Shown here: positions 4,050 through 19,926 of the stretch, piece by piece
How positions within the stretch are numbered: position 1 is the stretch's first letter
How the letters are laid out: each line of letters starts with the position of its first letter
Assembly: GCA_963845085.1 (NCBI GenBank)
Contig: CAWJQI010000004.1
Location: 352,001 to 416,000 of the forward strand
DNA from: Candidatus Fermentibacterota bacterium
GTDB taxonomy: Bacteria; Fermentibacterota; Fermentibacteria; Fermentibacterales; JCC-6
Direction: 5' to 3'
Length of the DNA stretch: 64,000 nt
The notes under the pieces: generated by a model
The model's database searches: none
What the model saw: the letters and a program-made list of their open reading frames with translations, nothing else
Told to the model about the DNA's origin: nothing
Translations under genes and position numbers: made by a program

Positions 4050-5645
4050 CTACTGAACCCAGATCACCCTGTCCCGGAAATCCGCTTCTATCGGCGAATG
4101 GGTGCGAATATAATCCATGACCGTATCCATGAGATTGTACCCGGTATGCCAGGGCTCGAGATGCGTGAGTATCCCGTAACCGACGCTTCCGTATGCCAGA
4201 TAGCCAGTTGTTGCGAACGTGTAGGTCGAGCAGGCGGAAAGGGGCTCGCCCTGCACCAGCGGGTTCTCAATCTTGCCGCCGTCAGGGTTCGACTGGTTTC
4301 GCAGGCAGGTGAAGCCCGAGACCTGCATGTCCCTGCGGCGCCCCTGCATGCCTGTCTCAAGTATTTCGAGCAGCTCAGCGCCCGTCACGCTGAACGCAAG
4401 GATGTCCTCCTCAAAAGGCAGTGCAGCGTAAACCGTCCTGGCCGTGACATCCCCGCGCGGAATCGAAGCCCTTATGCCCCCCCTGTTCACGAGGGCGACA
4501 TCTGCCCCGGCCCTCCAGCGTATCGCGTCGGCAACAAGCCTTCCCAGAGGATGCTCGGCGCCACCCCTGGGTATCTCGGTGAGGGCCTGCCCCAGCACTT
4601 CGTCCATGCCCTCTTCCGCAACGAGCCGGAATGACTCCACAAGACCCTCGGTCACCGTATCCGGCCAGAACTGCTCATGGAGAAGGCTCACGTACTCTCC
4701 GCCAAGAGGGCAGTCGTACCCAGTAACTGAACCGGTCCCGGTATCCAGCCGCAACCTTATCCAGCCGATGCCCGTCCCGTTGCCGTAACCCTGAACGACG
4801 ATGGAATGCGTGACGGGATTCACCCATGGCTCCTCGAGACCGGCGTGGATGTGGCCGCTCACCACGACGTCGATCCCGGGAACGAGACATGTGAGCTCCG
4901 CATTGTTGAGGGCAAAGTTCTTCGAATAGTCCACCCCGGCATCCCAGGCGGCGAAGACCCGCTCGAGGTAGACCCCGGGGTCCGGGGGCTGGCCAAGGTG
5001 CGAGACGAGGATGATGGTTTCCGCTCCCCCGTTCCGGGCTTCCCTCATGCTTCGCTCAAGAGCCTCGCGCTCGTTGATGAATTCGTAACCCTCAAGGCCG
5101 GCCTCATCGACAAGCGTACGTGTGTCGGGCGTCGCAAGACCGATAAAGGCGGTTCTCACACCGCCGAAATCCATGATCACACTTGGTGTTATCTCCCCTG
5201 GAACGGAATGGTCCGTGGTTTCGAAGTTCGCGCAGATCACTGGAAAATCAGCCAGATCAGCATTCCTCAGCGCTGTTTCCGCCCCCCGGTCAAAGTCATG
5301 GTTCCCGAGGGTCATCATGTCATATCCCACGGAATTCATCCACTCCACGACAAACGCGCCGGAATCATGGCTGCCGACGGGAGTGCCCTGCCAGATGTCA
5401 CCGGCATCGATGAGAACCACATACTCGCCGGCTTCCGTGCAGCTTCTGCGCACTTCCCCGACGAACGAGGAAATCCATGCCCCCCCTCCGATCTCCGGAG
5501 GGAAGTCGGGGTTCAGGAAGGTGGCGTCAGAATCGACGATTCCACCATGCATATCATTGGTATGCAATATGTTGAGGTATACGGTGCCTCCGTGGGAGAT
5601 CGCCGCCGGAAGCAATACCGGCAACCAGGCCCTGATCAACGCCAC
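4050..5645 (-). CDS. Secreted bifunctional metallophosphatase / 5'-nucleotidase (UshA/CpdB-like)
   Basis: Signal peptide; HTNDMHG, DAGD, GNHDFD, SHLG, GHIH metallophosphoesterase motifs; NRGGIR...LPF C-terminal domain. Confidence 0.9.
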   Translation of the reverse strand: MALIRAWLPVLLPAAISHGGTVYLNILHTNDMHGGIVDSDATFLNPDFPPEIGGGAWISSFVGEVRRSCTEAGEYVVLIDAGDIWQGTPVGSHDSGAFVVEWMNSVGYDMMTLGNHDFDRGAETALRNADLADFPVICANFETTDHSVPGEITPSVIMDFGGVRTAFIGLATPDTRTLVDEAGLEGYEFINEREALERSMREARNGGAETIILVSHLGQPPDPGVYLERVFAAWDAGVDYSKNFALNNAELTCLVPGIDVVVSGHIHAGLEEPWVNPVTHSIVVQGYGNGTGIGWIRLRLDTGTGSVTGYDCPLGGEYVSLLHEQFWPDTVTEGLVESFRLVAEEGMDEVLGQALTEIPRGGAEHPLGRLVADAIRWRAGADVALVNRGGIRASIPRGDVTARTVYAALPFEEDILAFSVTGAELLEILETGMQGRRRDMQVSGFTCLRNQSNPDGGKIENPLVQGEPLSACSTYTFATTGYLAYGSVGYGILTHLEPWHTGYNLMDTVMDYIRTHSPIEADFRDRVIWVQ

Positions 5646-6781
5646 GGGGGGACCTCCCCGAAGCTTCTTGAAAGACCCAGCACCAGGGCTGCTGAGAGCG
5701 TGTTCATGGAAAGGCTGTCGCCGGATTCGAAGCTCGGAAGCCCGGCCACCTCGGCCTGTCTCCAGCCCGAGGGAGTGAGCAGGAGACCCGCGTCGAACCT
5801 GTAGCTGTCGAACGCAAATCCTGCACCCGCGGTAAAGCTGAACGTGTCGAGCGCCCTGTGGAGGGGGGAGGTTCGGTAGTCGAAACCGAAGCGGGCGACC
5901 GGACCTCCGGGTAGGTGGTTCTCAACACCGCCCCTGATCCCCCAGGTGTTCCCCGCACCGGGTTCGCCTTCATCCCTCCAGTCAGCCTCTGCGACGAAAA
6001 GGCTTCTGAGCCTGTTTCCCGGAAGGTAGCCGACACCGCACCGAACCTCCAGGGCGTCATCGATTCCGTCATCGACCCCCCCGGACCTCACGTTCCATCC
6101 CATCGGTGCAGCCACCCCCGCCGCCAGACGAACCCTTTCAAGAACGATCTCCCCCGAAGCCCTCAGAACCGCCCCGGAAATACTCTCGTCAAGCTCCCAT
6201 GACTCGTCCGGTTCGGACGGGTCGGAATACGCCTTCGTCCAAGCCACATTGCGGCTGCCCGTTACGATACCCCCGCCGGCCCCGACGGACAGACCCGGGG
6301 TTGGGCTCCACCCCGCGGACGCTCCGAACTCCCAGAGCAGTCCGGTGCATTCGAGCGTTTCGAGTGCGGTCCGCACGTACGCCTCATCCCTTGTGGTTCG
6401 AGCGAAGTCATACGAGAAGCTTCCGACAGCCCTCGCCCCGGCGGCCACCCCCCAGTTTCGCAGGCGGAACACGCCGGCGAAGCCGCCCGGAGAAAGCACG
6501 GCACTCTGGTTGAAGGCATTTTCGGATTCGCCTACAACCCCCCCGAAAGAATCGTAGACCGTGCGGGTCCTTGATTCCCTGAAGTAGACGAGGGAGCCCG
6601 TGAAATCGGCGCGGTTCCCGGAAACGCACGCATAGGCGGGGTTCTCAAGGGCACCGAAGGCGGAGCGGTCCATGAAGGTGCCGCCTCCCATTCCGGCGGA
6701 GCCTGCGCAGGTTGCCGGGTTCCGGCCACCGAGCCACATCACCTCGGGAAGCCCGCAAAGAAGTGCAATAAGCGCGATCAT
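5636..6781 (-). CDS. Outer-membrane beta-barrel protein (FadL/PorV-like)
   Basis: SAGMGG...ENPA N-terminal motif typical of FadL/PorV barrels; alternating amphipathic strands. Confidence 0.65.
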   Translation of the reverse strand: MIALIALLCGLPEVMWLGGRNPATCAGSAGMGGGTFMDRSAFGALENPAYACVSGNRADFTGSLVYFRESRTRTVYDSFGGVVGESENAFNQSAVLSPGGFAGVFRLRNWGVAAGARAVGSFSYDFARTTRDEAYVRTALETLECTGLLWEFGASAGWSPTPGLSVGAGGGIVTGSRNVAWTKAYSDPSEPDESWELDESISGAVLRASGEIVLERVRLAAGVAAPMGWNVRSGGVDDGIDDALEVRCGVGYLPGNRLRSLFVAEADWRDEGEPGAGNTWGIRGGVENHLPGGPVARFGFDYRTSPLHRALDTFSFTAGAGFAFDSYRFDAGLLLTPSGWRQAEVAGLPSFESGDSLSMNTLSAALVLGLSRSFGEVPPWR

Positions 6782-6793
6782 CAGTTCTCCCGC

Positions 6794-9232
6794 CTACCAG
6801 CGATAGTCAAGCTGGAAACGCAAGCCATACTCAACCAGGCGGTCGGTAAAATCGCCCGGTACCGTCTCATCGCCTCCCCCGAAGTGATACGAATCGTCGG
6901 GGTCGGGACGGTAGAAACCGTTGTGCGGATAGCAGGTTTCCTTTCTCAGAAACCTCATCCTGAGCTGAATGCTGTCGGAGAGGACGTTTTTCAGCGTGAG
7001 GTAGAACTTCGTGCCCCTGCCGTCGAGAAAGTCGATGCCCGCATCCTCGAACTCCCACTGGCTCATCCCGTTCGTCGTCCAGAGAGTCGCGCCTCCAAGG
7101 AGGGACATGTCCCCGCTGAAGTCGTGCTCCCACTGCAGGCTGACAAAGCCCCCGTCCATGAGCCTGTCATCCCCGTAAAGGGGGTTCGGCGCGAGTTCGA
7201 CCATTCCGTACCGCAGGGACACGCTCACGTAGTCCCCGCCGGTGGGAAGGATGAACGTTCTGAATGTGTACTCGGAGGTCCGGGAGTCAGTGTCGAGAGC
7301 TTCCTTCGGTTTGTACTTGTCCTGAAACTTGTATTTGAGCCTGAAGCGAACCGGCCACACCGGCCGGTACTCAACCTCGCCCTGGAACCTGAGGTTTCCG
7401 GTGTCATGCGGGAGGGTCCTCCACAGATCGAGGTAAACCTTGGTGAATGTGATCCGGCCGCTCAGCTGGTACCTGGTCTCAAGGTAAACGCCCTCCTCGG
7501 GCTTTGGGACGGGCAGGCCGGCAAGCTGGCCGTAGAGGGGGTCGTTAAATCTGTAGGGGCTCTCGAACACGGTGTCATCAAACCTCAGTTGCTCCGTGAA
7601 ACCGCGGTTGTACGGATTTGTGAAGCCGGGTTCGTAACGGCGGTAGATGCAGGTAACGTAATGCCAGTCATTCCTCCAGTCCGCCCTTGCCAGCCCTGCC
7701 GCAGCTCCGTTGTCCTGAAGCGCAAGCTCGCCCTCCAGACTCAACCTGTCCAGAACGGTCTGGCCGCAGAAGCCCGTGAAGTCCATCCGGTCGCCCGAGG
7801 GCATGAGCGAATACTCCGGACAATCCCAGACGTAGCCGTCATTCGGAATATCCAGGGTTTCCTCGTCGGGGTTGAGGGAATCGCCGTATGCAACGCTCAT
7901 GAAACCTGCTCCAAGCGCCGTCCCGACAGGAAGGCGACCGCCGAGGTCGATGAACCCGTAGGCGCCCGCTGTTGTTTCGTCAATCATGCCTGAAGTGGCT
8001 TCCGTTCTGAAACGGCTCTGAATCAGAACATTGGGGGTCCCGTCGGGGTTCATCACCGCGTCCCGCCTGTTCCACGAGCCGAACCCGTAAAGTATGAAGT
8101 CGCCGGTCCTGACCTCGACGGCGCCGCCCGAGAGGGCATGCTGCCGTGTGGCGGTCAGGTCCGGCATCAGACCCCAGCTCCTCTGGGTGTTCCTGTATCG
8201 GAGTTCATCGGTGTTGTCCATAAAAAGCCCCTGCCCGAGGCTCAGGCGGTAATTGCCCACCAGTATTCTTCTTACCGCACCCTCCGGACGCCACTCGGCG
8301 AACACCTTTGCCGTTTCGAAGCCGCCTTCCGTCTCAAGTTCGTTGGTGAATGTGAAGAGGGGGCCTTCGACGGCGGTCGCGGATCGATCCCTTGAAAACC
8401 TTATGCCCGCCTGAAAGCTCCCGCCGGTGCTGAAGCGGAGTTTGTGGCTGAAGCCCGGCCTGTCGCGCGAGGCCAGAAGGGTCTCCCTTTCGGCAAGCAG
8501 CTGTCCGGCGAGGGCAGCGCTGTCAACCGGGCTTCCGGAATAGTCCCTGGAACCATCCGAAAGGGCTGTGATGGCGGATTCGACCTCGGAGATCATTCCC
8601 TCAAGGTTCTCGTCGATCCCGTCCCTTCCCGAGCCACCCGAGAAGACGAATCTGTAGTTTCCTCCGAAACCGGAACGGACAGAGGGCCCGGCCGACACGA
8701 AGTCCCTCATGTTCCGCCAGGCGAAGTGGGTCAGATTGTCCGTGTCCCTCAGGGAGGTGATGCTGCCGGGAGCGCCGGTGCTTCTGAGCCTGGCATCCAC
8801 CGCCGCGGCATCGATCAGGCTGACACCGTCAAGACCGCGAAGGTCCCAGTGCGTGGCCCGCTCGAGCGGCAACGGTCTTTCGAGAAGGTCCTCCCAGTAC
8901 TCGACCTCGGAGGCGCCCGGGCCGTCTTCCTGGGAGAGTTTGTCCATAACGTCCATGATCTGCGGGCTGATCCTTCCTGCTTCGGGCGGAAGCACCACTG
9001 TGTTGCCGATCAGCCATTCCAGCGTTTCCGGGTCGAACCCGGGTATGGACAGCACTTCGTAGATGTTCTCGAGCCCCCCGGTCTCAAGGATGTATGCATG
9101 AAGGGCGAGAGCCTGAGAATCCGTCAGACCCGGCAGATCCAGAAGCTCCTGAAGGCGGGCGGAGTTAAGGTCGGGCCCGGTCATCCCGAAGGCCGAGAGG
9201 ACGAGAAGAATGGCGGGAAGGCTAGAACGCAT
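6794..9232 (-). CDS. Helix-hairpin-helix (ComEA-like) domain fused to an outer-membrane beta-barrel
   Basis: Signal peptide; DLNSARLQELLDLPGL and ATHWDLRGLDGVS HhH motifs; VGNYRLSLGQGL motif; C-terminal FQLDYRW beta-signal. Confidence 0.75.
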   Translation of the reverse strand: MRSSLPAILLVLSAFGMTGPDLNSARLQELLDLPGLTDSQALALHAYILETGGLENIYEVLSIPGFDPETLEWLIGNTVVLPPEAGRISPQIMDVMDKLSQEDGPGASEVEYWEDLLERPLPLERATHWDLRGLDGVSLIDAAAVDARLRSTGAPGSITSLRDTDNLTHFAWRNMRDFVSAGPSVRSGFGGNYRFVFSGGSGRDGIDENLEGMISEVESAITALSDGSRDYSGSPVDSAALAGQLLAERETLLASRDRPGFSHKLRFSTGGSFQAGIRFSRDRSATAVEGPLFTFTNELETEGGFETAKVFAEWRPEGAVRRILVGNYRLSLGQGLFMDNTDELRYRNTQRSWGLMPDLTATRQHALSGGAVEVRTGDFILYGFGSWNRRDAVMNPDGTPNVLIQSRFRTEATSGMIDETTAGAYGFIDLGGRLPVGTALGAGFMSVAYGDSLNPDEETLDIPNDGYVWDCPEYSLMPSGDRMDFTGFCGQTVLDRLSLEGELALQDNGAAAGLARADWRNDWHYVTCIYRRYEPGFTNPYNRGFTEQLRFDDTVFESPYRFNDPLYGQLAGLPVPKPEEGVYLETRYQLSGRITFTKVYLDLWRTLPHDTGNLRFQGEVEYRPVWPVRFRLKYKFQDKYKPKEALDTDSRTSEYTFRTFILPTGGDYVSVSLRYGMVELAPNPLYGDDRLMDGGFVSLQWEHDFSGDMSLLGGATLWTTNGMSQWEFEDAGIDFLDGRGTKFYLTLKNVLSDSIQLRMRFLRKETCYPHNGFYRPDPDDSYHFGGGDETVPGDFTDRLVEYGLRFQLDYRW

Positions 9233-10040
9233 ACCTGACCCCCGCCTGATGGGTGGGGCTCAGCCGGGAATGGGTTTCGACGGCGTAGGAGAAAACAACA
9301 CCGGACACCTCGGCACTGAAGCCTCCGGAAACCGCTGCGGGCCCGCTTCTGGCTCCGGCGAACAGAGTGAGCGGACCAAGCGGCAGGGCCTGCCCCACAC
9401 GAAGCACGGTGCTTTCGAAATCGCGCGACAGCGCGAGGGCGCTTGCCATGCCGGGCAGGGGTTCGTACCTCACACCCAGGTCCATCCGGTTCCCGAGGTG
9501 CTCGCCGCCCTGCCCGATCCTCGCCTCGAAAGGGTTCCGCAGACATGCGCCAACGCTCCACCTGTCGAATACCCTTGCCTGAAGGCCCGCCGTCATGTCC
9601 ATTGTCCATGCGCTTCCATAACTGCCGACGCCGTCGGAGATCGACACCCTTCCCAGAACAGGCTGAAACCCGACGGCAAAGTCCTCCGACAACAGAAACG
9701 AGGCCGTGACGTGTACAAGCTGTTCCGAATAAAGCTCTCCCCCGAACCATCTCATCCCGCCGCCAAGGGTCCAGCCCCCGGGGAGTGGATGGGCAAGATC
9801 AGCGCCGGCCGTTGCGAAATCGGTCAAACTGTATGGCAGCCTTGCTGCTGCTGACGCCGAAGCCCTCGTTTCGAAGGATATCGAGGCAGGGTTCCAGCAG
9901 ATCCCGGAAAGCCCGGGCATCACAACTCCGGTTCCTCCCATTGCCCTGCACTCGGTTCCCAGTTCAAGTTCTTCAAAGGCTGCCGCGGCCACCCCTGCCA
10001 AAAGCAGAACGATGATCGAATGAAACACAAACGCTCTCAT
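9222..10040 (-). CDS. PorV/PorP-like outer-membrane beta-barrel
   Basis: Signal peptide; AFE...RAMGG...WNPA; C-terminal HSRLSPTHQAGVRYAF. Confidence 0.7.
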   Translation of the reverse strand: MRAFVFHSIIVLLLAGVAAAAFEELELGTECRAMGGTGVVMPGLSGICWNPASISFETRASASAAARLPYSLTDFATAGADLAHPLPGGWTLGGGMRWFGGELYSEQLVHVTASFLLSEDFAVGFQPVLGRVSISDGVGSYGSAWTMDMTAGLQARVFDRWSVGACLRNPFEARIGQGGEHLGNRMDLGVRYEPLPGMASALALSRDFESTVLRVGQALPLGPLTLFAGARSGPAAVSGGFSAEVSGVVFSYAVETHSRLSPTHQAGVRYAF

Positions 10041-10049
10041 GTCGTCCCC

Positions 10050-11057
10050 TTACCGAAGCGGGGAGGCCACTACGACTGTCTCCGTCGTTGTGAGCCTTTC
10101 CCCGGCGGGGGTGGTTCCTTCAAGGAGCAGAACGTACTGCCCCATCGGCAGAATTTCGTACGAGTCGCCCCGGCCGTCCCAGACTGTCACGTCACCGGCT
10201 GGCATGTTCTCGGCGAGTCGTGCGACCGCCCTGCCGCACCTGTCAAAAACGGTCAGGTCGAGAAGGGTGCCGGAAGGCCCTCCGTACGTGATCGAAACAA
10301 CCTCGCCGAGTGAAGGTGCGAACGGATTGCCCTGCACATCGAGGTGAAACGTTGCCGGGATCGAGGGGTCGTACACCTCAAGGTCCTGCTGGTAGCGCGG
10401 AAGCAGCTGGTAACCGGTCGAATACGGGGGCTCGGACGAGTACTGGCCCGAGATCCCGGTCATGACCAGCCTTGTTCCGGGGGAGATGCCCGAAACGTCG
10501 ATCCCCGTGGTCTCATTCACCCTGACAGCGATGAGCGCGTTTCCGTTCCAGGCGCTGAAATTCCAGCCGCCGCCCGACATGGAGGGGGTGTCGATCACCG
10601 TCGCCCAGTGTTCACCTGCAATGTCGCCGACGACGACAAGCATCCCCTCCAACGCCTCACCGATGTTCCTGTGCCTTGATAGGTACAGTGGTTCGGGCGC
10701 ACCGGGGCTTCCGATCAGCTCGAAGTCGGACGGGTCTCCCGGCGAGATCTCGGTCAGGCCGTTATAGAACATTATCTCGCCGGTGATCCGGTACTCGTCA
10801 CCCGCGTTGATCTCACCAGGCGAGGCCTGGCTGTAGGCGTACACGTTTATGCCTGCCGTGTCATCCTGAACGAAAAAGCTGAGCCCCGTTGTCGAGAAAA
10901 GCATGCCCTCGCAAGTGGCAACGGCCTGGATCGTGACGGTCTGTCCCAGAAGGTCGGGTATTCCGTTCCCGTCCGAATCCGCCCTGGCGTCGGCCACGGT
11001 CAAAACCTGTGCCCACAACCGGCAGGCCACCACCGCGGGAACCAGGAATCGTTTCAT
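10050..11057 (-). CDS. Secreted tandem OB-fold protein with FlgD-Ig/T9SS-like C-terminal sorting domain
   Basis: GQTVTIQAVAT...FFVQDDTAGINVY and GISGQY...YQLLPR OB-fold patterns; CTD GNPFAP...VFDRCGRAV...WDGR...GQYVL. Confidence 0.65.
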   Translation of the reverse strand: MKRFLVPAVVACRLWAQVLTVADARADSDGNGIPDLLGQTVTIQAVATCEGMLFSTTGLSFFVQDDTAGINVYAYSQASPGEINAGDEYRITGEIMFYNGLTEISPGDPSDFELIGSPGAPEPLYLSRHRNIGEALEGMLVVVGDIAGEHWATVIDTPSMSGGGWNFSAWNGNALIAVRVNETTGIDVSGISPGTRLVMTGISGQYSSEPPYSTGYQLLPRYQQDLEVYDPSIPATFHLDVQGNPFAPSLGEVVSITYGGPSGTLLDLTVFDRCGRAVARLAENMPAGDVTVWDGRGDSYEILPMGQYVLLLEGTTPAGERLTTTETVVVASPLR

Positions 11058-11067
11058 TCAAACCCCC

Positions 11068-12453
11068 TCAGCGTTCATTTTCGAGCCGGATCTCGGCATC
11101 GGTGAGGGACGCAGCCCTGTCCAACGCCTCCTCCGGCTCCATCCTTCCGTAAAGCACGATCTCGAGAGCTTCCGACAGGAACTCCCTGCCATCGTACCAG
11201 GCGATGGTCTGGGGTTCGTACAGCGCTGTCTCCACCTGTGCTACCACAGCGTAAAGGCCCGGGTACTCGATGAACTTCTCCTGCATGAGGGGATGATCGA
11301 GGCTTGACCTCCTTGCGGGAAGATAGCCGCTTCCGGCTGACCACCGTGCCTGCTGCACGGGCTCGGTAAACCATCGGATGAATTCCCAGCCGGCCTCCAC
11401 GACGCGCGGGTCCTCATTGCGGAAAAGCACCACATTGGTTCCCGCGATGTAGACCCTTCGATAATCATCACCCGGCAGGGGCGCAACGCCCACCGTGAAT
11501 ACGGGTTCTCCGGCCGCCCTTCTCCGCTCCATCTCCTGCTCCATGAAGGCCAGGCTTGTGACCGATCCCTGGACCTGCCCGAGCCCGCCTTCGAGAAAGT
11601 TCCTCTGGTGGTCGAAGCCCGACGAAAGGTAAGCGGTTCCATCGACATGAATGAGGCATGCCAGGTACTCGAGCGCCTCAACGCCCTCGGGTCCGTTGAA
11701 TGCAGCCCTTGTGCCGGAATCGCCAAGCAGGGCGCCTCCGGCCTGGGCGAGGAGGCATTCGAAGGTCCAGACGCTCGGGCTGAAGGCCGTACCCCATCTG
11801 TCGCCGGCGTCAAGCAGGTCGCCGTCGCCGTTGGCATCAAGGCAGAGCGCCCTCAGAAGCTGTCTCTGTTCATCCCATGTGGCCGCCGGAACAAGCCCGA
11901 GCCTGCGGTACAGGTCTGCATCGTAGTAGACCAGCGGAACGCTCTTGTTGAATGGAAAGCTGTAGATGCGCCCGTCATAGGTGTTGTTGTCCCTGAAGAC
12001 CGGGAAGAAATCGTTCCAGTCATCCCGGCTGTAGAGGGTGTCGGCTTCCATCAATGAGTCAAGCGGGACCACAACTCCTCCGCGGATGAGCTGCGCTGTC
12101 CAGGTTTCGTAGGCCTGTGCGATGACGGGAGGTGAGCCTGCCATGACCGAAGCCATGATCTTCTGGCTGAGGGCGCGGTAGTTGCCCATGTTGACGGGGA
12201 TCACCCGGATCTCCGGATGAGTGCTGTTGAAATCGGCGATCAGGGAATCCTCAAGCACATCGCCGAGCGGCCCGCCCATGGCGTGCCAGAAAACAACTTC
12301 GACCGGCCCGTCCGCGCCGCCACGACCACCGCAGCCGCACAGCAGGCAGGCGAAGGCCATATAAAGCGTCCTGGCTCTCAGCGGAACCTCCATCTCCGGG
12401 AAAAGCGATGCGGTAAGATGCAGCACCGCCGGATTCGGGACAAGAAGCGGCAT
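11068..12453 (-). CDS. ABC transporter solute-binding lipoprotein (UgpB/family 1-like)
   Basis: Lipobox-like LLCGC; FWHAMGG, PFNKS, GTNVVLF, SGYLP; start may be 12393. Confidence 0.85.
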   Translation of the reverse strand: MPLLVPNPAVLHLTASLFPEMEVPLRARTLYMAFACLLCGCGGRGGADGPVEVVFWHAMGGPLGDVLEDSLIADFNSTHPEIRVIPVNMGNYRALSQKIMASVMAGSPPVIAQAYETWTAQLIRGGVVVPLDSLMEADTLYSRDDWNDFFPVFRDNNTYDGRIYSFPFNKSVPLVYYDADLYRRLGLVPAATWDEQRQLLRALCLDANGDGDLLDAGDRWGTAFSPSVWTFECLLAQAGGALLGDSGTRAAFNGPEGVEALEYLACLIHVDGTAYLSSGFDHQRNFLEGGLGQVQGSVTSLAFMEQEMERRRAAGEPVFTVGVAPLPGDDYRRVYIAGTNVVLFRNEDPRVVEAGWEFIRWFTEPVQQARWSAGSGYLPARRSSLDHPLMQEKFIEYPGLYAVVAQVETALYEPQTIAWYDGREFLSEALEIVLYGRMEPEEALDRAASLTDAEIRLENER

Positions 12454-12539: not shown

Positions 12540-13025
12540 GTGAAACCGGCTTATGCCTTGTCCTGCCTTCTCCTTGCTGCCTGTAACGGCCCAGGCGACC
12601 CGGCCGATGCACTTGACGCCTTCTTCGACGCGGCGAAGGAAGGGAAGGGTGAACTCGCTGTTTCGTACCTTTCGGGCGAGGCAATCGACTCCCTTGGTGC
12701 GGGATTGAACCTTGCGGAGATGAGGGGCAACCCTGAACGCGCCTCCTCAATGCTGGCGTCGTATGGAATTGCCATTTCTGAGGCCGAGTTGGACACGATC
12801 ACGACGGGGCCTCTGCTGGAACGGCTTGTTGAATCGCCTCTTTTCGAAGGCTTGATGGAGGATGCGTTACTTGAGACCGAAGGTGTTTCCATTGAAGGCC
12901 GGAGGGCAATTGTGAACGCCACCGTTGTCTTTCTTGGAGATACCACGACGGGTGCTGTGGAAATGGTGCTTGAGAACAACCAGTGGAAGATCGGCAGCGA
13001 AGGTTTGCGCTTCGCGCTTTTGTGA
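12540..13025 (+). CDS. DUF4878/NTF2-like lipoprotein
   Basis: Lipobox LAAC; P...FFDAAKEG; C-terminal MVLENNQWKI. Confidence 0.7.
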   Translation: MKPAYALSCLLLAACNGPGDPADALDAFFDAAKEGKGELAVSYLSGEAIDSLGAGLNLAEMRGNPERASSMLASYGIAISEAELDTITTGPLLERLVESPLFEGLMEDALLETEGVSIEGRRAIVNATVVFLGDTTTGAVEMVLENNQWKIGSEGLRFALL

Positions 13026-13051
13026 ACCCCAAAACGAACAGGAGAAAGACG

Positions 13052-13516
13052 ATGAAGAAGCTTCTCATTATCACGGCCATCGTGGCCATGATCGCTGGCT
13101 GCGGAGCCGCCATGGGTCCCAAGGCCACCGTTGAGAAGGCGTTCAATGCCCTTAAGACCGGCGACGGAAAGGCCCTCATCGAGTGCATGTCCGCAGAGCA
13201 GATCGCCGAACTGAACACCTCTATCGAGGAAATGAAGGCCAACCCCGAGGAATCCGCCCAGATGATGGCTTTCATCGGTGTCGAGGTTACCGCCGAAGAG
13301 ATCACCGCCCTTGATGCAGCCGGCTTCGTCACCCTCCTTCTTCAGTCGGAGATGTTCGGCGCCGAGTTCGCCGAGATGGAGATCACCTTCGGTGCCGAGA
13401 GGATCGAAGGCGAGCAGGCCTGGGTCGAGGTTACGACCGATGGCGAGACCGAGGAAGTAATGCTTGTGAAGGAAGACGGCCGCTGGGTCATCTCCGAAGG
13501 CTTCGACATGATGTAG
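13052..13516 (+). CDS. DUF4878/NTF2-like lipoprotein (paralog of the upstream gene)
   Basis: Lipobox IAGC; PKATVEKAFNALKTGD; LVKEDGRWVI; AGGAG SD. Confidence 0.75.
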   Translation: MKKLLIITAIVAMIAGCGAAMGPKATVEKAFNALKTGDGKALIECMSAEQIAELNTSIEEMKANPEESAQMMAFIGVEVTAEEITALDAAGFVTLLLQSEMFGAEFAEMEITFGAERIEGEQAWVEVTTDGETEEVMLVKEDGRWVISEGFDMM

Positions 13517-16988: not shown

Positions 16989-17506
16989 GCCGGCCTGCCT
17001 AAGGCGGACAGAAGACCCGTCCTGCCCTGGAAGCGCATCCCGCGGAGCTTCATGCCCGAGGCGGTGACGGCGGTCAGCGCCTCGCCTTCCATACCCTTGC
17101 GGAATGTAAGGACAAAAACGCCATCCGGCTTCAGCAGATGGGCGGCTGCGAAAACGAAGCTGTAAAGAAGAAGGGGATCGCCCCGCCTGGATGCCTCCCT
17201 GCGCGGGTCGGGGCTCGGTCTGCCCGTTCCTCTGGTAAAGTAGGGCGGATTTGCAGTGACGAGGTCTGCTATCCCGGAATGAAACAGCGACGGAACCCGC
17301 TCCACTTCTGCAAGCACTGGAAGCACGGCGTCCCTGGAGCGGCCAAGGGAGGAGTGGCAGGTATCCAGGCCGATCCAGAGATATGCCCCGTTGACTTCCG
17401 CCACCAGCCTTGCCACCTCACCCTCCCCGGTACCGAGGTCAAAAGCCAGCCCTCCGCTTCCGGAGGCGGCCTCTCCGGCCAGAAGCACAGAGTCGTGGGT
17501 GATCAC
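16985..17506 (-). CDS. SAM-dependent N6-adenine methyltransferase (tRNA1Val m6A37 YfiC/TrmN6-like)
   Basis: DSVLLA, DLGTGEG motif I, ANPPY motif IV. Confidence 0.75.
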   Translation of the reverse strand: MITHDSVLLAGEAASGSGGLAFDLGTGEGEVARLVAEVNGAYLWIGLDTCHSSLGRSRDAVLPVLAEVERVPSLFHSGIADLVTANPPYFTRGTGRPSPDPRREASRRGDPLLLYSFVFAAAHLLKPDGVFVLTFRKGMEGEALTAVTASGMKLRGMRFQGRTGLLSALGRPA

Positions 17507-18114
17507 CGGTAAAGGGCCTTGGCAACGCCCCAGGTGTAGTTTTCGCCGGTGTAGTAGGGAACCCTGTTGTCCTCCCATCGGCGGATGCTCCAAAGACCGA
17601 ACTCATCGGCAACCATGGTGATGACCGCCTGCCCCTTCGAGGGCCGGTCCCACCCGCAGCCAAGCGTTCCGGCAGCCACGATGTAGTAGTCGCGGTAAAT
17701 GGTTACGCTGTCGACGGGCACCGGCGGATCGGGGTGCTCGGGGTCCACCATGAGATACGCCAGTGAAAGGCTGTCCTCCGGGGCGCCGGAAGCCTCAGCC
17801 TGGTAAAGGATCGATGCAACGGTCTGTTCCTCAACGCTCTTCGACCAGTCCGAGAAATCGAGGTCCTGGAAGTCGGGGTCGGAGACATCGAGCGGATCTG
17901 CAAGGAACTCGAAATCCTCGTGGAAGCAGGCATTGTAGTAATTTATGGAAAGCCCGTTGAGAGAGTTCTGAAGGTTCGCAATGACGACGGTCGGATGGAC
18001 GGGGTCCTCCCACTGCACGTCGGGATCGGGATCGGGGTCTTCGGGATCCCTGGGCTCGAACACGCTGCACGAGACGAGGAGCAATGCGCAGAACTGAAGA
18101 AATGGTCTCATCAT
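17503..18114 (-). CDS. Acidic lipoprotein of unknown function
   Basis: Lipobox LVSC, FEPRDPEDP, WSIRRWED. Confidence 0.7.
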   Translation of the reverse strand: MMRPFLQFCALLLVSCSVFEPRDPEDPDPDPDVQWEDPVHPTVVIANLQNSLNGLSINYYNACFHEDFEFLADPLDVSDPDFQDLDFSDWSKSVEEQTVASILYQAEASGAPEDSLSLAYLMVDPEHPDPPVPVDSVTIYRDYYIVAAGTLGCGWDRPSKGQAVITMVADEFGLWSIRRWEDNRVPYYTGENYTWGVAKALYR

Positions 18115-18120
18115 ACGCTC

Positions 18121-19926
18121 CTAGAGCAGGTAGTTGAAGTTCATGGAGGCGCTCCAGTAACTTGGCACGTCCGTGGTGCGGATGGACCTTGTCATGTTTG
18201 CGGACAGCACTCCGCCCAGAATCCTTATCGAGTTTCTGATGCCGATGTGATGGATGTGCTCGTCGGTGCTGGTGCCCTGGTCAAGCCTGTTGCTCCACGA
18301 ATACTCCCAGCCGTAGCTGGGCGTTATGCCGACGTTGTCCGACACATGGAAACCCATGTTGAACGTGAGGCGGGAGTTCACGGTCTCGGTGGTTCTGGCG
18401 AAAAGCCTGTTCTCGTATCGGCCCTGGTCACGGAACATGAAGGTGTGGCTGATGCCGAGAACCGTGCTGTCGCTGCTCACCCTGTTGAAGGTGAAAAACG
18501 ATTCCAGCCTGCGGCTCAGACGGTTGCCCTGGCTTGAATACTGCGGGAAGAAGTATGTGGTGTAGTCTGCGCTGAGCTTCACGGAGTGGTCGACATTCCA
18601 TCCCCGTCCAACGTTGCATTCGTACCCGGGACGGACGCTGTAAGTGGAGCTGCGCCTGTTTTCGCCGGACATGGACGCCATGAGGAAGATCGTCTCGCGA
18701 CGCTGCCCCTGCATCTCGCCCTTCAGGGTGAACCAGTCGGAGAGCGGGATCCTCGCCGAAATGCCAAGAAGCTCCCGGAGCTCATCATTGTCGGTATCGT
18801 CTTCGTAAGTGTTTCCGAAGCTGTCCTCCCAGGTCCCGGAGGTGTCGGTCCGGTAAAGGTCGACCAGCCTGTGGAAGGTGATGCTGCTCTCCCCCGGTGT
18901 GTAGATGAGCCTGAAGGAGAGAAGCCTGTCGTCAGTTGTTTTCGAAATGTCGAACAGATCGGGCATGCCCGCAATCTGGCGCTTGGAGTCTTCTAGGTTG
19001 AGCGTGCGGGAGATATTGATGTCGAGGTCGATCTCTTCCAGCATCTCCCATACGATCGTGCAGCCTATCTGACGCCCGTTGGTCGAATTGTCGCCGGGAT
19101 TGCCTTCGATCGTGGTGTCGGGGTCGAATTCGGTGTTGATCCTGTCCTCAAAGGACCAGGCACCGCTCATCTCCATGAAGATTCCGGGGATTATCTCGGG
19201 CAGGACGAGGCTTTCAGAATGCCTCCAGCTCTCCCCCCGTCTCGAAAGCTCGGTCTCGTAGTTCGTGTTGAAATTCCTGTCGGCGCCCACCTCTGCGTTG
19301 AAGCTGCCGCCCATCCAGGAATCGGGGAAATTGTAGCCCATCCTTGCGGAGATGTTGTCACGCCCGGTGTCCACCAGGCTGCCGTACGCCCTGCCCTCGG
19401 TAACGCTCAGGCTTGCGCTCAGGATGTTGAACAACCGCCTCGTGAGGGTTGCACTGACATCCTGGAGCGAACCGTCGTTCACCTTGGGAGCAAGTGAATC
19501 GCGGTACATCGTACTCGATGAGAAAAGTCCCGCCTGCATGTCAAGAGAGAGCCATTCCGCAGGGCTGAACCTGATCTGGCCCGTACTGCTGTCGTTTATC
19601 TGGTCCTGCTCCATCGATCCCGCTTTGTCCCACAGGTCGATCGACCGGGCGAAACTGGTGGATATCTCCATCCCCGGCCTGGGCTTCCAGCTCAGCCACG
19701 CCCTGCCGCTCCTGCCGTCGGTGAACCTTTGAAGGGCGAGGCTTCTCGATGCGATGAAGGTTGCGCTTCCGTTGATGCTCAGGTTGCGGGAAAAATCCTG
19801 GGAAAAGGTGAGGGAATTCGTCAGGTTGCTGGTGTTCTTGTACTGGTCGAGCCCGACGTTGTAGTTGGCGTTCCAGGCCGGAAGCATGCCGGCGCACAGG
19901 AACAGCAAGGGAAGGCTTCTTTTCAC
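18121..19926 (-). CDS. Hypothetical outer-membrane beta-barrel protein
   Basis: Signal peptide; Ser/Thr/Asn-rich amphipathic strands; terminal WSASMNFNYLL. Confidence 0.7.
   Translation of the reverse strand: MKRSLPLLFLCAGMLPAWNANYNVGLDQYKNTSNLTNSLTFSQDFSRNLSINGSATFIASRSLALQRFTDGRSGRAWLSWKPRPGMEISTSFARSIDLWDKAGSMEQDQINDSSTGQIRFSPAEWLSLDMQAGLFSSSTMYRDSLAPKVNDGSLQDVSATLTRRLFNILSASLSVTEGRAYGSLVDTGRDNISARMGYNFPDSWMGGSFNAEVGADRNFNTNYETELSRRGESWRHSESLVLPEIIPGIFMEMSGAWSFEDRINTEFDPDTTIEGNPGDNSTNGRQIGCTIVWEMLEEIDLDINISRTLNLEDSKRQIAGMPDLFDISKTTDDRLLSFRLIYTPGESSITFHRLVDLYRTDTSGTWEDSFGNTYEDDTDNDELRELLGISARIPLSDWFTLKGEMQGQRRETIFLMASMSGENRRSSTYSVRPGYECNVGRGWNVDHSVKLSADYTTYFFPQYSSQGNRLSRRLESFFTFNRVSSDSTVLGISHTFMFRDQGRYENRLFARTTETVNSRLTFNMGFHVSDNVGITPSYGWEYSWSNRLDQGTSTDEHIHHIGIRNSIRILGGVLSANMTRSIRTTDVPSYWSASMNFNYLL

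Follow-up and report, generated by a model that had tools for sequence, protein, structure and literature searches.

Does a protein that joins ComEA-type helix-hairpin-helix (HhH) modules to a large outer-membrane barrel pull DNA into the cell, or does it take part in another process? This question is raised by a gene of Candidatus Fermentibacterota (assembly GCA_963845085.1) located in a stretch of 64,000 nucleotides (contig CAWJQI010000004.1, positions 352,001 to 416,000), which will be called the window. DNA is known to cross the outer membrane through secretins and, in Bacteroidota, through a transporter of the TonB-dependent type. The gene (9232..6794, reverse strand) is a single open frame that codes for a protein of 812 amino acids (aa), P0001, whose C-terminus is LDYRW and whose closest named relatives belong to Candidatus Fermentibacterota. 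The original prediction, made from the letters of the window, described it as a DNA-translocating pore with a built-in ratchet. Gene context in several phyla supports the link to nucleic-acid uptake, but the ComEA ratchet is weakened because the glycine and lysine needed by Vibrio ComEA (G60 and K63) are lost. The explanation that we favour, although only with about even confidence, is that the 812-aa barrel is the entry channel of a nutritional nucleic-acid uptake module, in which the HhH modules would be a periplasmic plug or docking site and not a ratchet. The gene and its parts are the following:

6794..9232, reverse strand: HhH-HhH-large barrel gene, 812 aa (P0001), of a family present in 66 of 70 genomes of the phylum
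9182..9232, reverse strand: predicted cleavable signal peptide, about residues 1-17, without lipobox (sequence and family count)
8993..9175, reverse strand: HhH module 1, residues 20-80, ComEA-type fold, acidic (net -9), hairpin glycine and lysine lost
8693..8878, reverse strand: HhH module 2, residues 119-180, with an Asp that hardly varies in place of the ComEA lysine and a conserved aromatic/Arg patch in the second hairpin
8642..8668, reverse strand: likely first barrel strand, residues 189-197, suggested by an amphipathic 9-mer
8465..8635, reverse strand: helical insertion, residues 200-256 (helical periodicity z 2.1), likely in the first outer loop
6797..8464, reverse strand: main predicted β-barrel region, residues 257-812, with an aromatic C-terminus and basic polar-face strands at residues 261, 628 and 755

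HhH modules and the ComEA DNA grip

Two alignments were used, A1 (38 close members) and A2 (a 90-row homologue profile). A hydrophobic 8-mer leader precedes module 1 in 79 of the 85 scorable homologues and a lipobox in none of them (0/85), the remaining 5 of the 90 rows of A2 having no anchor motif and being left unscored; this agrees with the signal peptide that had been proposed at the start of the protein. Homologues are about 750-940 aa long, and the 812-aa protein does not have the size of a small soluble or membrane-anchored ComEA. One family member, P0106 (1251 aa), carries a 430-aa N-terminal extension rich in tetratricopeptide repeats before the HhH modules.

The two ComEA-type HhH segments placed after the signal peptide by the original prediction are both recovered, module 1 by HHH_3 and by the solved ComEA structure 8dss, to which it can be aligned, and module 2 by family profiles. 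In the search with hidden Markov models (HMM), module 1 (residues 21-73) matches Pfam HHH_3 with an E-value of 4e-5 and 24 bits, under the cut-off of 27, and 38 out of 38 members of A1 match this model as well; module 2 (about residues 119-180) of the 812-aa protein was not detected on its own by the Pfam HMM scan. The latter aligns with the single HhH module of the Bacteroidota homologues, and two stretches of the tandem HhH region of EEPD1 are matched by the A2 family profile (E 2e-21).

In Vibrio cholerae ComEA, the substitutions K63E, K62/63A, G60V and G60E abolish transformation, whereas G60A is tolerated (PMC3879209). The register of G60 and K63 was placed via the 8dss alignment and this same article, not via the Vibrio sequence itself. 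At the G60-equivalent position, no A2 homologue has glycine, either in module 1 (0/89) or in module 2 (0/90). Lysine or arginine occupies the K63-equivalent position in 9/89 homologues for module 1 and in 0/90 for module 2, where 88 out of 90 carry Asp. Counted over 90 rows, a complete GhG is found 2, 5, 0 and 2 times, respectively, at the four hairpins. In a set of 120 Bacteroidota-type proteins (P0201 and 119 of the 120 listed, from 311 found), the G60 site is Gly in only one and the K63 site is Gln in 106. Judged from these alignments, the canonical ComEA grip is absent from both modules, and the description of the HhH segments as DNA-binding is not upheld. A different, non-canonical binding by module 2 is possible; this module has a conserved Tyr/Arg patch and is mildly basic (median charge +2). 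The same HhH family profile also matches PsbU and GspK, neither of which is known as a DNA receptor.

For DNA binding, a test based only on net charge was discarded. A paralogous HhH module, carried by a small barrel described below, is intact and also net negative (-1 to -7), and for this reason the site-specific residue test was used. In the best 30 paralogous loci, which belong to only three genera within a single family, this module keeps both features (Gly at the G60 site in 30/30, K or R at the K63 site in 29/30). Therefore, it is specifically the large barrel that has lost these residues.

The predicted barrel and its topology

A β-barrel of about 550 aa had been proposed for the rest of the protein. 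Lipid/polar alternation in residues 257-812 reaches z 3.3 over column shuffles, and z 4.6 in residues 580-812. The same measure gives z 3.8 and 3.4 for two neighbouring barrel-type proteins, -1.0 for the neighbouring nucleotidase and -0.9 for the binding protein, and the HhH region was scored as helical in the periodicity analysis. The C-terminal residue is aromatic (W, F or Y) in 87 out of 90 homologues, as expected from the reading of LDYRW as a β-signal. Residues beyond the HhH modules have no sequence match in Pfam, NCBIfam or the PDB, the PDB sequence searches giving HhH matches only, plus one spurious kelch-repeat match. Among named families, DUF6029 (PF19494) comes nearest to the barrel region in language-model features (0.93). 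This is a lead only: the protein has no sequence match to DUF6029, which was not found in the genome either, by a search that had no positive control. Taken together, these sequence features indicate that the 812-aa protein is likely an outer-membrane β-barrel.

The helices of residues 200-256 had been interpreted as a linker before the barrel, and this part of the original prediction has to be revised. An amphipathic segment (residues 189-197), which aligns with the region after the HhH module in Bacteroidota homologues, precedes the helices, and residues 200-256 correspond to a gap in the Bacteroidota homologue profile, that is, to an insertion which those homologues lack. Moreover, in a paralogue without HhH the corresponding barrel region begins directly after the signal peptide. 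Taken with the usual barrel topology, the strand before the helices, the gap and the start of the paralogue make it likely that the helices are an insertion in the first outer loop and not a periplasmic linker.

In three large-barrel groups the amphipathic segments have polar faces with a net basic charge, +0.34 per segment in the group of the 812-aa protein and +0.50 and +0.28 in the other two; in the two smaller barrels these faces are not basic (-0.11 and -0.43). These values were obtained without shuffle control.

The operon and its conserved neighbours

Six same-strand genes abut one another, with gaps of -11 to 12 bases, in the order binding protein, OB-fold cargo with a tail resembling those of type 9 secretion systems (T9SS), small PorV-like barrel, HhH-barrel, FadL/BamG-like barrel and 5'-nucleotidase. 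The five genes around the HhH-barrel gene are:

11068..12453, reverse strand: substrate-binding protein of an ATP-binding cassette (ABC) transporter, UgpB-like, true start probably inside the open reading frame (ORF)
10050..11057, reverse strand: OB-fold protein with a T9SS-like C-terminal domain (CTD), 335 aa, likely a surface nucleic-acid binder
9222..10040, reverse strand: small PorV/PorQ-like barrel, 272 aa (NF033709 E 8e-7, below cut-off)
5636..6781, reverse strand: FadL/BamG-like barrel, 381 aa (NF053685 E 1e-5, far below cut-off)
4050..5645, reverse strand: exported 5'-nucleotidase, UshA type, 531 aa, metal motifs intact

Promoter and terminator scans gave results at chance level. The small barrel gene overlaps the start of the HhH-barrel gene by 11 bases, and the small PorV-like barrel is likely the cognate shuttle or anchor; the profile of the FadL-like barrel matches it as well (97%). 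The OB-fold protein shows weak matches to the N-terminal region of ExeM/NucH, to the OB fold and to FlgD_ig/CHU_C. A nuclease domain was not detected in it by the Pfam and NCBIfam scans, nor was DUF5689 by the Pfam scan. Among five cargo homologues scanned, DUF5689 was found in that of the Cloacimonadota locus L061 (E 2e-13) and, weakly, in those of L074 and L076. This domain is present in DdbD (PMC12478041) and in RA0C_RS04920 of Riemerella anatipestifer (PMC8459023).

The best 80 of 155 related loci were examined, 59 grouped as Fermentibacterota (by title or by identity >50%) and 21 from other phyla. The 59 Fermentibacterota loci contain the FadL-like barrel in 58 cases, the nucleotidase in 55, the small barrel in 55, the OB-fold protein in 52 and the binding protein in 48, and the 21 loci of other phyla contain them in 20, 13, 15, 13 and 3 cases, respectively; many of these loci are cut by contig ends, which the counts do not separate from true losses. 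One or two single-domain phospholipase D (PLD) genes occur in 8 of the 21 loci from other phyla, and there are none in the operon of the window. All 12 PLD genes carry one full HKD motif, a single-domain layout as in Nuc-type nucleases. The GNH motif of the nucleotidase is present in 55 out of 55 Fermentibacterota homologues. In the eight loci with PLD genes (L060, L061, L062, L065, L069, L073, L076 and L078) the nucleotidase is short and its catalytic motif is missing (8/8), whereas it is intact in the loci of other phyla without PLD genes (5/5), kinship being uncontrolled in this contrast.

L063 (12190-14456), L064 (12189-14416) and L075 (4818-6922) have, after the nucleotidase, a second cargo with the look of a PHP-like metallohydrolase and a CTD, followed by a small barrel. 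In the window, two tandem DUF4878-like lipoproteins (12540-13516, forward strand) are divergent from the operon. Farther away, downstream of an rRNA methyltransferase-like gene, the region 17503-19926 (reverse strand) codes for a 601-aa protein with a barrel-like C-terminus and a 203-aa lipoprotein, neither of which has a family match.

Distribution and Bacteroidota homologues

The gene is present in 66/70 genomes of the phylum and in 44/46 of those of high quality, and it appears to be single-copy; six genomes have two partial matches that resemble split contigs or frames. L077 (11-2413) has the family gene split over two frames. Relatives were found in WOR-3, Cloacimonadota, Edwardsbacteria, Latescibacterota and TA06, and also in Fidelibacterota clusters and in Elusimicrobiota and Dependentiae records.

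Homology with a Bacteroidota HhH-barrel family (WP_121956131.1, WP_237924592.1) is full-length, since the hhalign match (100%, E 2e-49) extends over 589 columns that include the HhH and the β-rich region. Both families share a signal peptide, degenerate HhH modules and the barrel region, and Parabacteroides has the same small barrel upstream of the HhH-barrel gene. However, the Bacteroidota proteins have only one HhH module and no helical insertion. Cultured gut Bacteroidales, such as Parabacteroides distasonis and Bacteroides finegoldii, possess homologues. BT3167 is likely the Bacteroides orthologue, as deduced from its name, gene order and a nearby rubrerythrin gene; in the available part of PMC10434189 it is listed once, in an expression table. 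No study of the Bacteroidota/Fermentibacterota HhH-barrel family was found in the literature outside subscription journals, preprint supplements and the supplements of PMC12478041.

A paralogous pair of small and large barrels

The genome of the window contains a second small-barrel/large-barrel pair:

G000:C4:582764-580228 (L092, 8765-6229), reverse strand: PorV-like small barrel with a C-terminal HhH, followed by an HhH-less large barrel of 493 aa

The gene for the HhH-ending small barrel overlaps the start of that for the 493-aa barrel. The latter is of the Bacteroidota type (99.9%) and related to the 812-aa protein (97%, 400 columns). Homology likewise joins the two small barrels (99.6%), and it extends to the 269-aa protein encoded upstream of the Parabacteroides gene (98.8%). 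The HhH-less barrel is found in 66/70 genomes of the phylum and in 46/46 of high quality, and both paralogues are present in 4 of 5 genomes from other phyla. In all the best 30 paralogous loci the terminal HhH is on the small barrel and keeps both GhG hairpins. The small barrel of L125 has two HhH modules at its end, both intact and basic. A simple shift of the gene boundary carrying one HhH from one barrel to the other was considered too simple, the large barrel of L125 also matching the HhH-bearing part of the A3 profile.

The end of a barrel and the start of the next one normally lie on the periplasmic side. It is thus reasonable to place the HhH modules in the periplasm, and the paired loci support both this position and the existence of a common small-barrel/large-barrel module in which the small barrel bears the intact HhH modules and the large barrel the disarmed ones. 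Some 4 kb upstream of this pair, L092 (12709-14283, reverse strand) codes for a lipoprotein-like protein with two OB repeats, similar to the N-terminal region of ExeM/NucH (E 1e-15), which is the only other OB match of that type in the genome.

Permeases, MBL genes and secretion genes elsewhere in the genome

No permease genes lie beside the ABC binding protein gene of the window. In the whole genome, the sole permease pair that matches the in-operon permeases of L076 is directly behind a gene coding for an HhH domain and a ComEC-type metallo-β-lactamase (MBL) domain:

G000:C4:653808-656577 (L089), forward strand: HhH + ComEC-type MBL gene, then ABC permeases, then a PorV-family gene

These permeases are likely the partners of the orphan binding protein. 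The HhH-MBL gene occurs in 67/70 genomes of the phylum; in the best 30 loci its HxHxDH motif is present in 30/30 and a permease gene comes next in 28. Among 38 weaker matches, 14 have a second MBL gene, without HhH, at ≤16 kb from the paralogous barrel, as read by eye.

The genome also has an SprA-like gene, PorV-family genes and 67 CTD-like ORFs. The SprA-like translocon gene (G000:C1:243312-248967, reverse strand) appears as two open frames, possibly by a frameshift or a split, with pilus-type ATPase genes directly downstream. A secretin gene (C1:305569-307317) lies beside pilus-type genes. ComEC was not found in the genome of the window, which is 88% complete. A lack of competence genes was nevertheless rejected as an argument, ComEC being present in 68/70 genomes of the phylum, and independence of TonB is likewise not claimable from absence, with six TonB_C matches in the genome. 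Since the phylum has ComEC, and the genome a secretin, TonB-like proteins and an SprA-like gene, none of the possible explanations can be discarded on genome content.

A proposed nutritional entry channel and its alternatives

If the 812-aa barrel is an entry channel, the OB-fold cargo would leave the cell through an SprA-like translocon and be kept on the surface by the small PorV-like barrel, where it would gather extracellular DNA or RNA. Nucleic-acid fragments would then cross the large barrel along its basic strands. In the periplasm, nucleases (PLD/Nuc-type in some phyla, the HhH-MBL protein in Fermentibacterota) together with the 5'-nucleotidase would convert them into nucleosides and phosphate. 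Degradation would act as a sink, so that flux would be pulled inward, and the ABC system would import the products into the cell. In favour of this proposal are the closely packed operon, the recurrence of its genes in other phyla, the HKD motifs of the PLD genes, the DUF5689 match of a cargo homologue, the permease pair behind the HhH-MBL gene, the basic polar faces of the large barrels and the presence of SprA-like, PorV-family and CTD-like genes. Gene content and order, conservation and the loss of motif residues are observed, whereas barrel fold, topology, transport, substrate and partners are predicted.

Several facts weigh against this proposal. With respect to the barrel, alternation is weak in residues 257-540 (z 1.0), a lax strand count is barely over shuffles (26 versus 19.4 +/- 3.0), and the comparison that suggests a basic lumen has no shuffle control. 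With respect to gene context, the nucleotidase homologue has no catalytic GNH motif in 8 of 13 loci from other phyla, the binding protein is UgpB-like, and the FAD oxidoreductase and GTPase genes located downstream have no evident link to uptake. Three Bacteroidota records show no nuclease, OB-fold or nucleotidase gene beside the homologue, and in L068 (6866-9381) the family gene is in three frames and all the usual neighbours are missing. In addition, DNA depletion by Bacteroides thetaiotaomicron needs a separate locus, ddb (PMC12478041).

Part of the same evidence could be explained if the large barrel anchored or assembled a T9SS-type surface complex made of the OB-fold cargo and the small and FadL-like barrels, with the products entering by other pores, such as the FadL-like barrel. 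We consider this scaffold role unlikely, although the cargo-then-shuttle gene order matches that of T9SS cognate pairs (PMC12618676), the genes for the small and the large barrel adjoin in the locus of the window, in the paralogous locus and in Parabacteroides, and degenerate HhH modules, whose profile also matches PsbU and GspK, would suit protein contacts. However, in B. finegoldii and in a Prevotella record the large barrel persists with no small barrel beside it, and the conserved basic polar-face strands suggest a path for a solute. A housekeeping role in the envelope, such as the handling of outer-membrane proteins or lipids, would make the HhH a relic and the operon link lineage-specific. 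The near-universal and apparently single-copy presence of the gene in the phylum would fit such a role, as would the weak resemblance of the downstream barrel to BamG, the degeneration of HhH also in the 120 Bacteroidota-type proteins and the unrelated neighbours in Bacteroides. It is rather improbable, given that the OB-fold cargo, the PLD nucleases and the nucleotidase recur alongside the barrel in several phyla and that, in Fermentibacterota and L125, the partner small barrel carries intact HhH modules by fusion.

The competence ratchet, in which double-stranded DNA would be pulled in by the protein's own ComEA-type modules and handed to ComEC, appears to us quite improbable. The loss of the G60 and K63 equivalents argues against it, and the co-transcribed nucleotidase and the nucleases would destroy the incoming DNA. 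Moreover, the genome has a secretin beside pilus-type genes, and a screen in R. anatipestifer points to a channel of the TonB-dependent type (PMC8459023); the essential HhH protein of this bacterium has its domain at residues 236-301, unlike the HhH-barrel family, as far as can be judged from its description in the same article. On the other hand, all homologues have the ComEA-type fold, ComEC is present in 68/70 genomes, module 2, mildly basic and with a conserved Tyr/Arg patch, might bind DNA in a non-canonical way, and the ddb loci indicate that feeding and competence machines can be related (PMC12478041).

Beyond the entry channel proposed for the 812-aa barrel, a wider hypothesis can be put forward, which we regard as doubtful but worth stating. 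The FCB group (Fibrobacterota, Chlorobiota, Bacteroidota) and neighbouring phyla might share an undescribed two-barrel nucleic-acid gate, formed by a small PorV-like barrel, a large barrel with a basic lumen and a periplasmic HhH, with no need of a secretin or a TonB-dependent receptor. Of the two Fermentibacterota paralogues, that with the disarmed HhH would feed the nucleotidase pathway, while uptake of intact DNA would fall to the other, whose small barrel has an intact ComEA module. If a third family of barrels is tied to nucleic-acid genes, views on the recycling of extracellular DNA and RNA by many uncultured anaerobes would change, and the family is testable now because cultured gut Bacteroidales have homologues. 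As the HhH modules are disarmed on the large barrel but intact on the small one, automatic 'ComEA family' names also call for caution.

Comparison with known systems

ComEA (HHH_3 PF12836, TIGR00426/TIGR01259; PDB 8dss, 8dfk, 2duy; PMC3879209) shares with the 812-aa protein the (HhH)2 module and the exported location. However, the latter scores under all the cut-offs, has two copies of the module, is fused to a β-rich region of 620 aa, and the hairpin Gly and the DNA-binding Lys are absent. PGN_0421 (ComEA domain at residues 94-165; PMC11532111) and RA0C_RS02645 (PMC8459023) were tried as characterised orthologues and set aside; by description only, the position of the domain does not fit in either case, which leaves orthology unproven either way.

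T9SS cargo-shuttle pairs (PorV; PorP/SprF; PMC12618676) resemble the operon in that a gene for a CTD-bearing cargo is followed by a small barrel gene. They differ in that no HhH-barrel is described in the available part of that source, and the small barrel of Fermentibacterota is below the PorV family cut-off.

Another likeness is with ddbABCDEF, the DNA-utilisation locus of B. thetaiotaomicron, for which Sharan et al. model DdbD as a DNA binder that partners the transporter DdbC (PMC12478041). Both loci cluster an outer-membrane transporter (a predicted one in Fermentibacterota), a surface binder of OB/DUF5689 type and exported enzymes that degrade nucleic acids, although DUF5689 was seen in three of the five cargo homologues scanned and not in the OB-fold protein of the window, and PLD/Nuc-type genes only in loci of other phyla; the ddb locus has a nutritional role related to competence (PMC12478041). 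However, DdbC is annotated as TonB-dependent and DdbD is its binding partner, whereas the HhH-barrel has no such family match and starts with HhH modules; no TonB-dependent receptor or plug family was matched in Pfam or NCBIfam, a direct alignment with DdbC being outside the scope of these scans. The Fermentibacterota binder differs too, with its T9SS-like tail and its own small barrel, and the enzymes are of the 5'-nucleotidase, PLD or MBL types. The system would therefore be like ddb in its working but not in its transporter type, and like ComEA in fold but not in binding residues or size. The 812-aa HhH-barrel is a real, conserved and uncharacterised protein, and its operon would be a variant of the nucleic-acid-utilisation loci.

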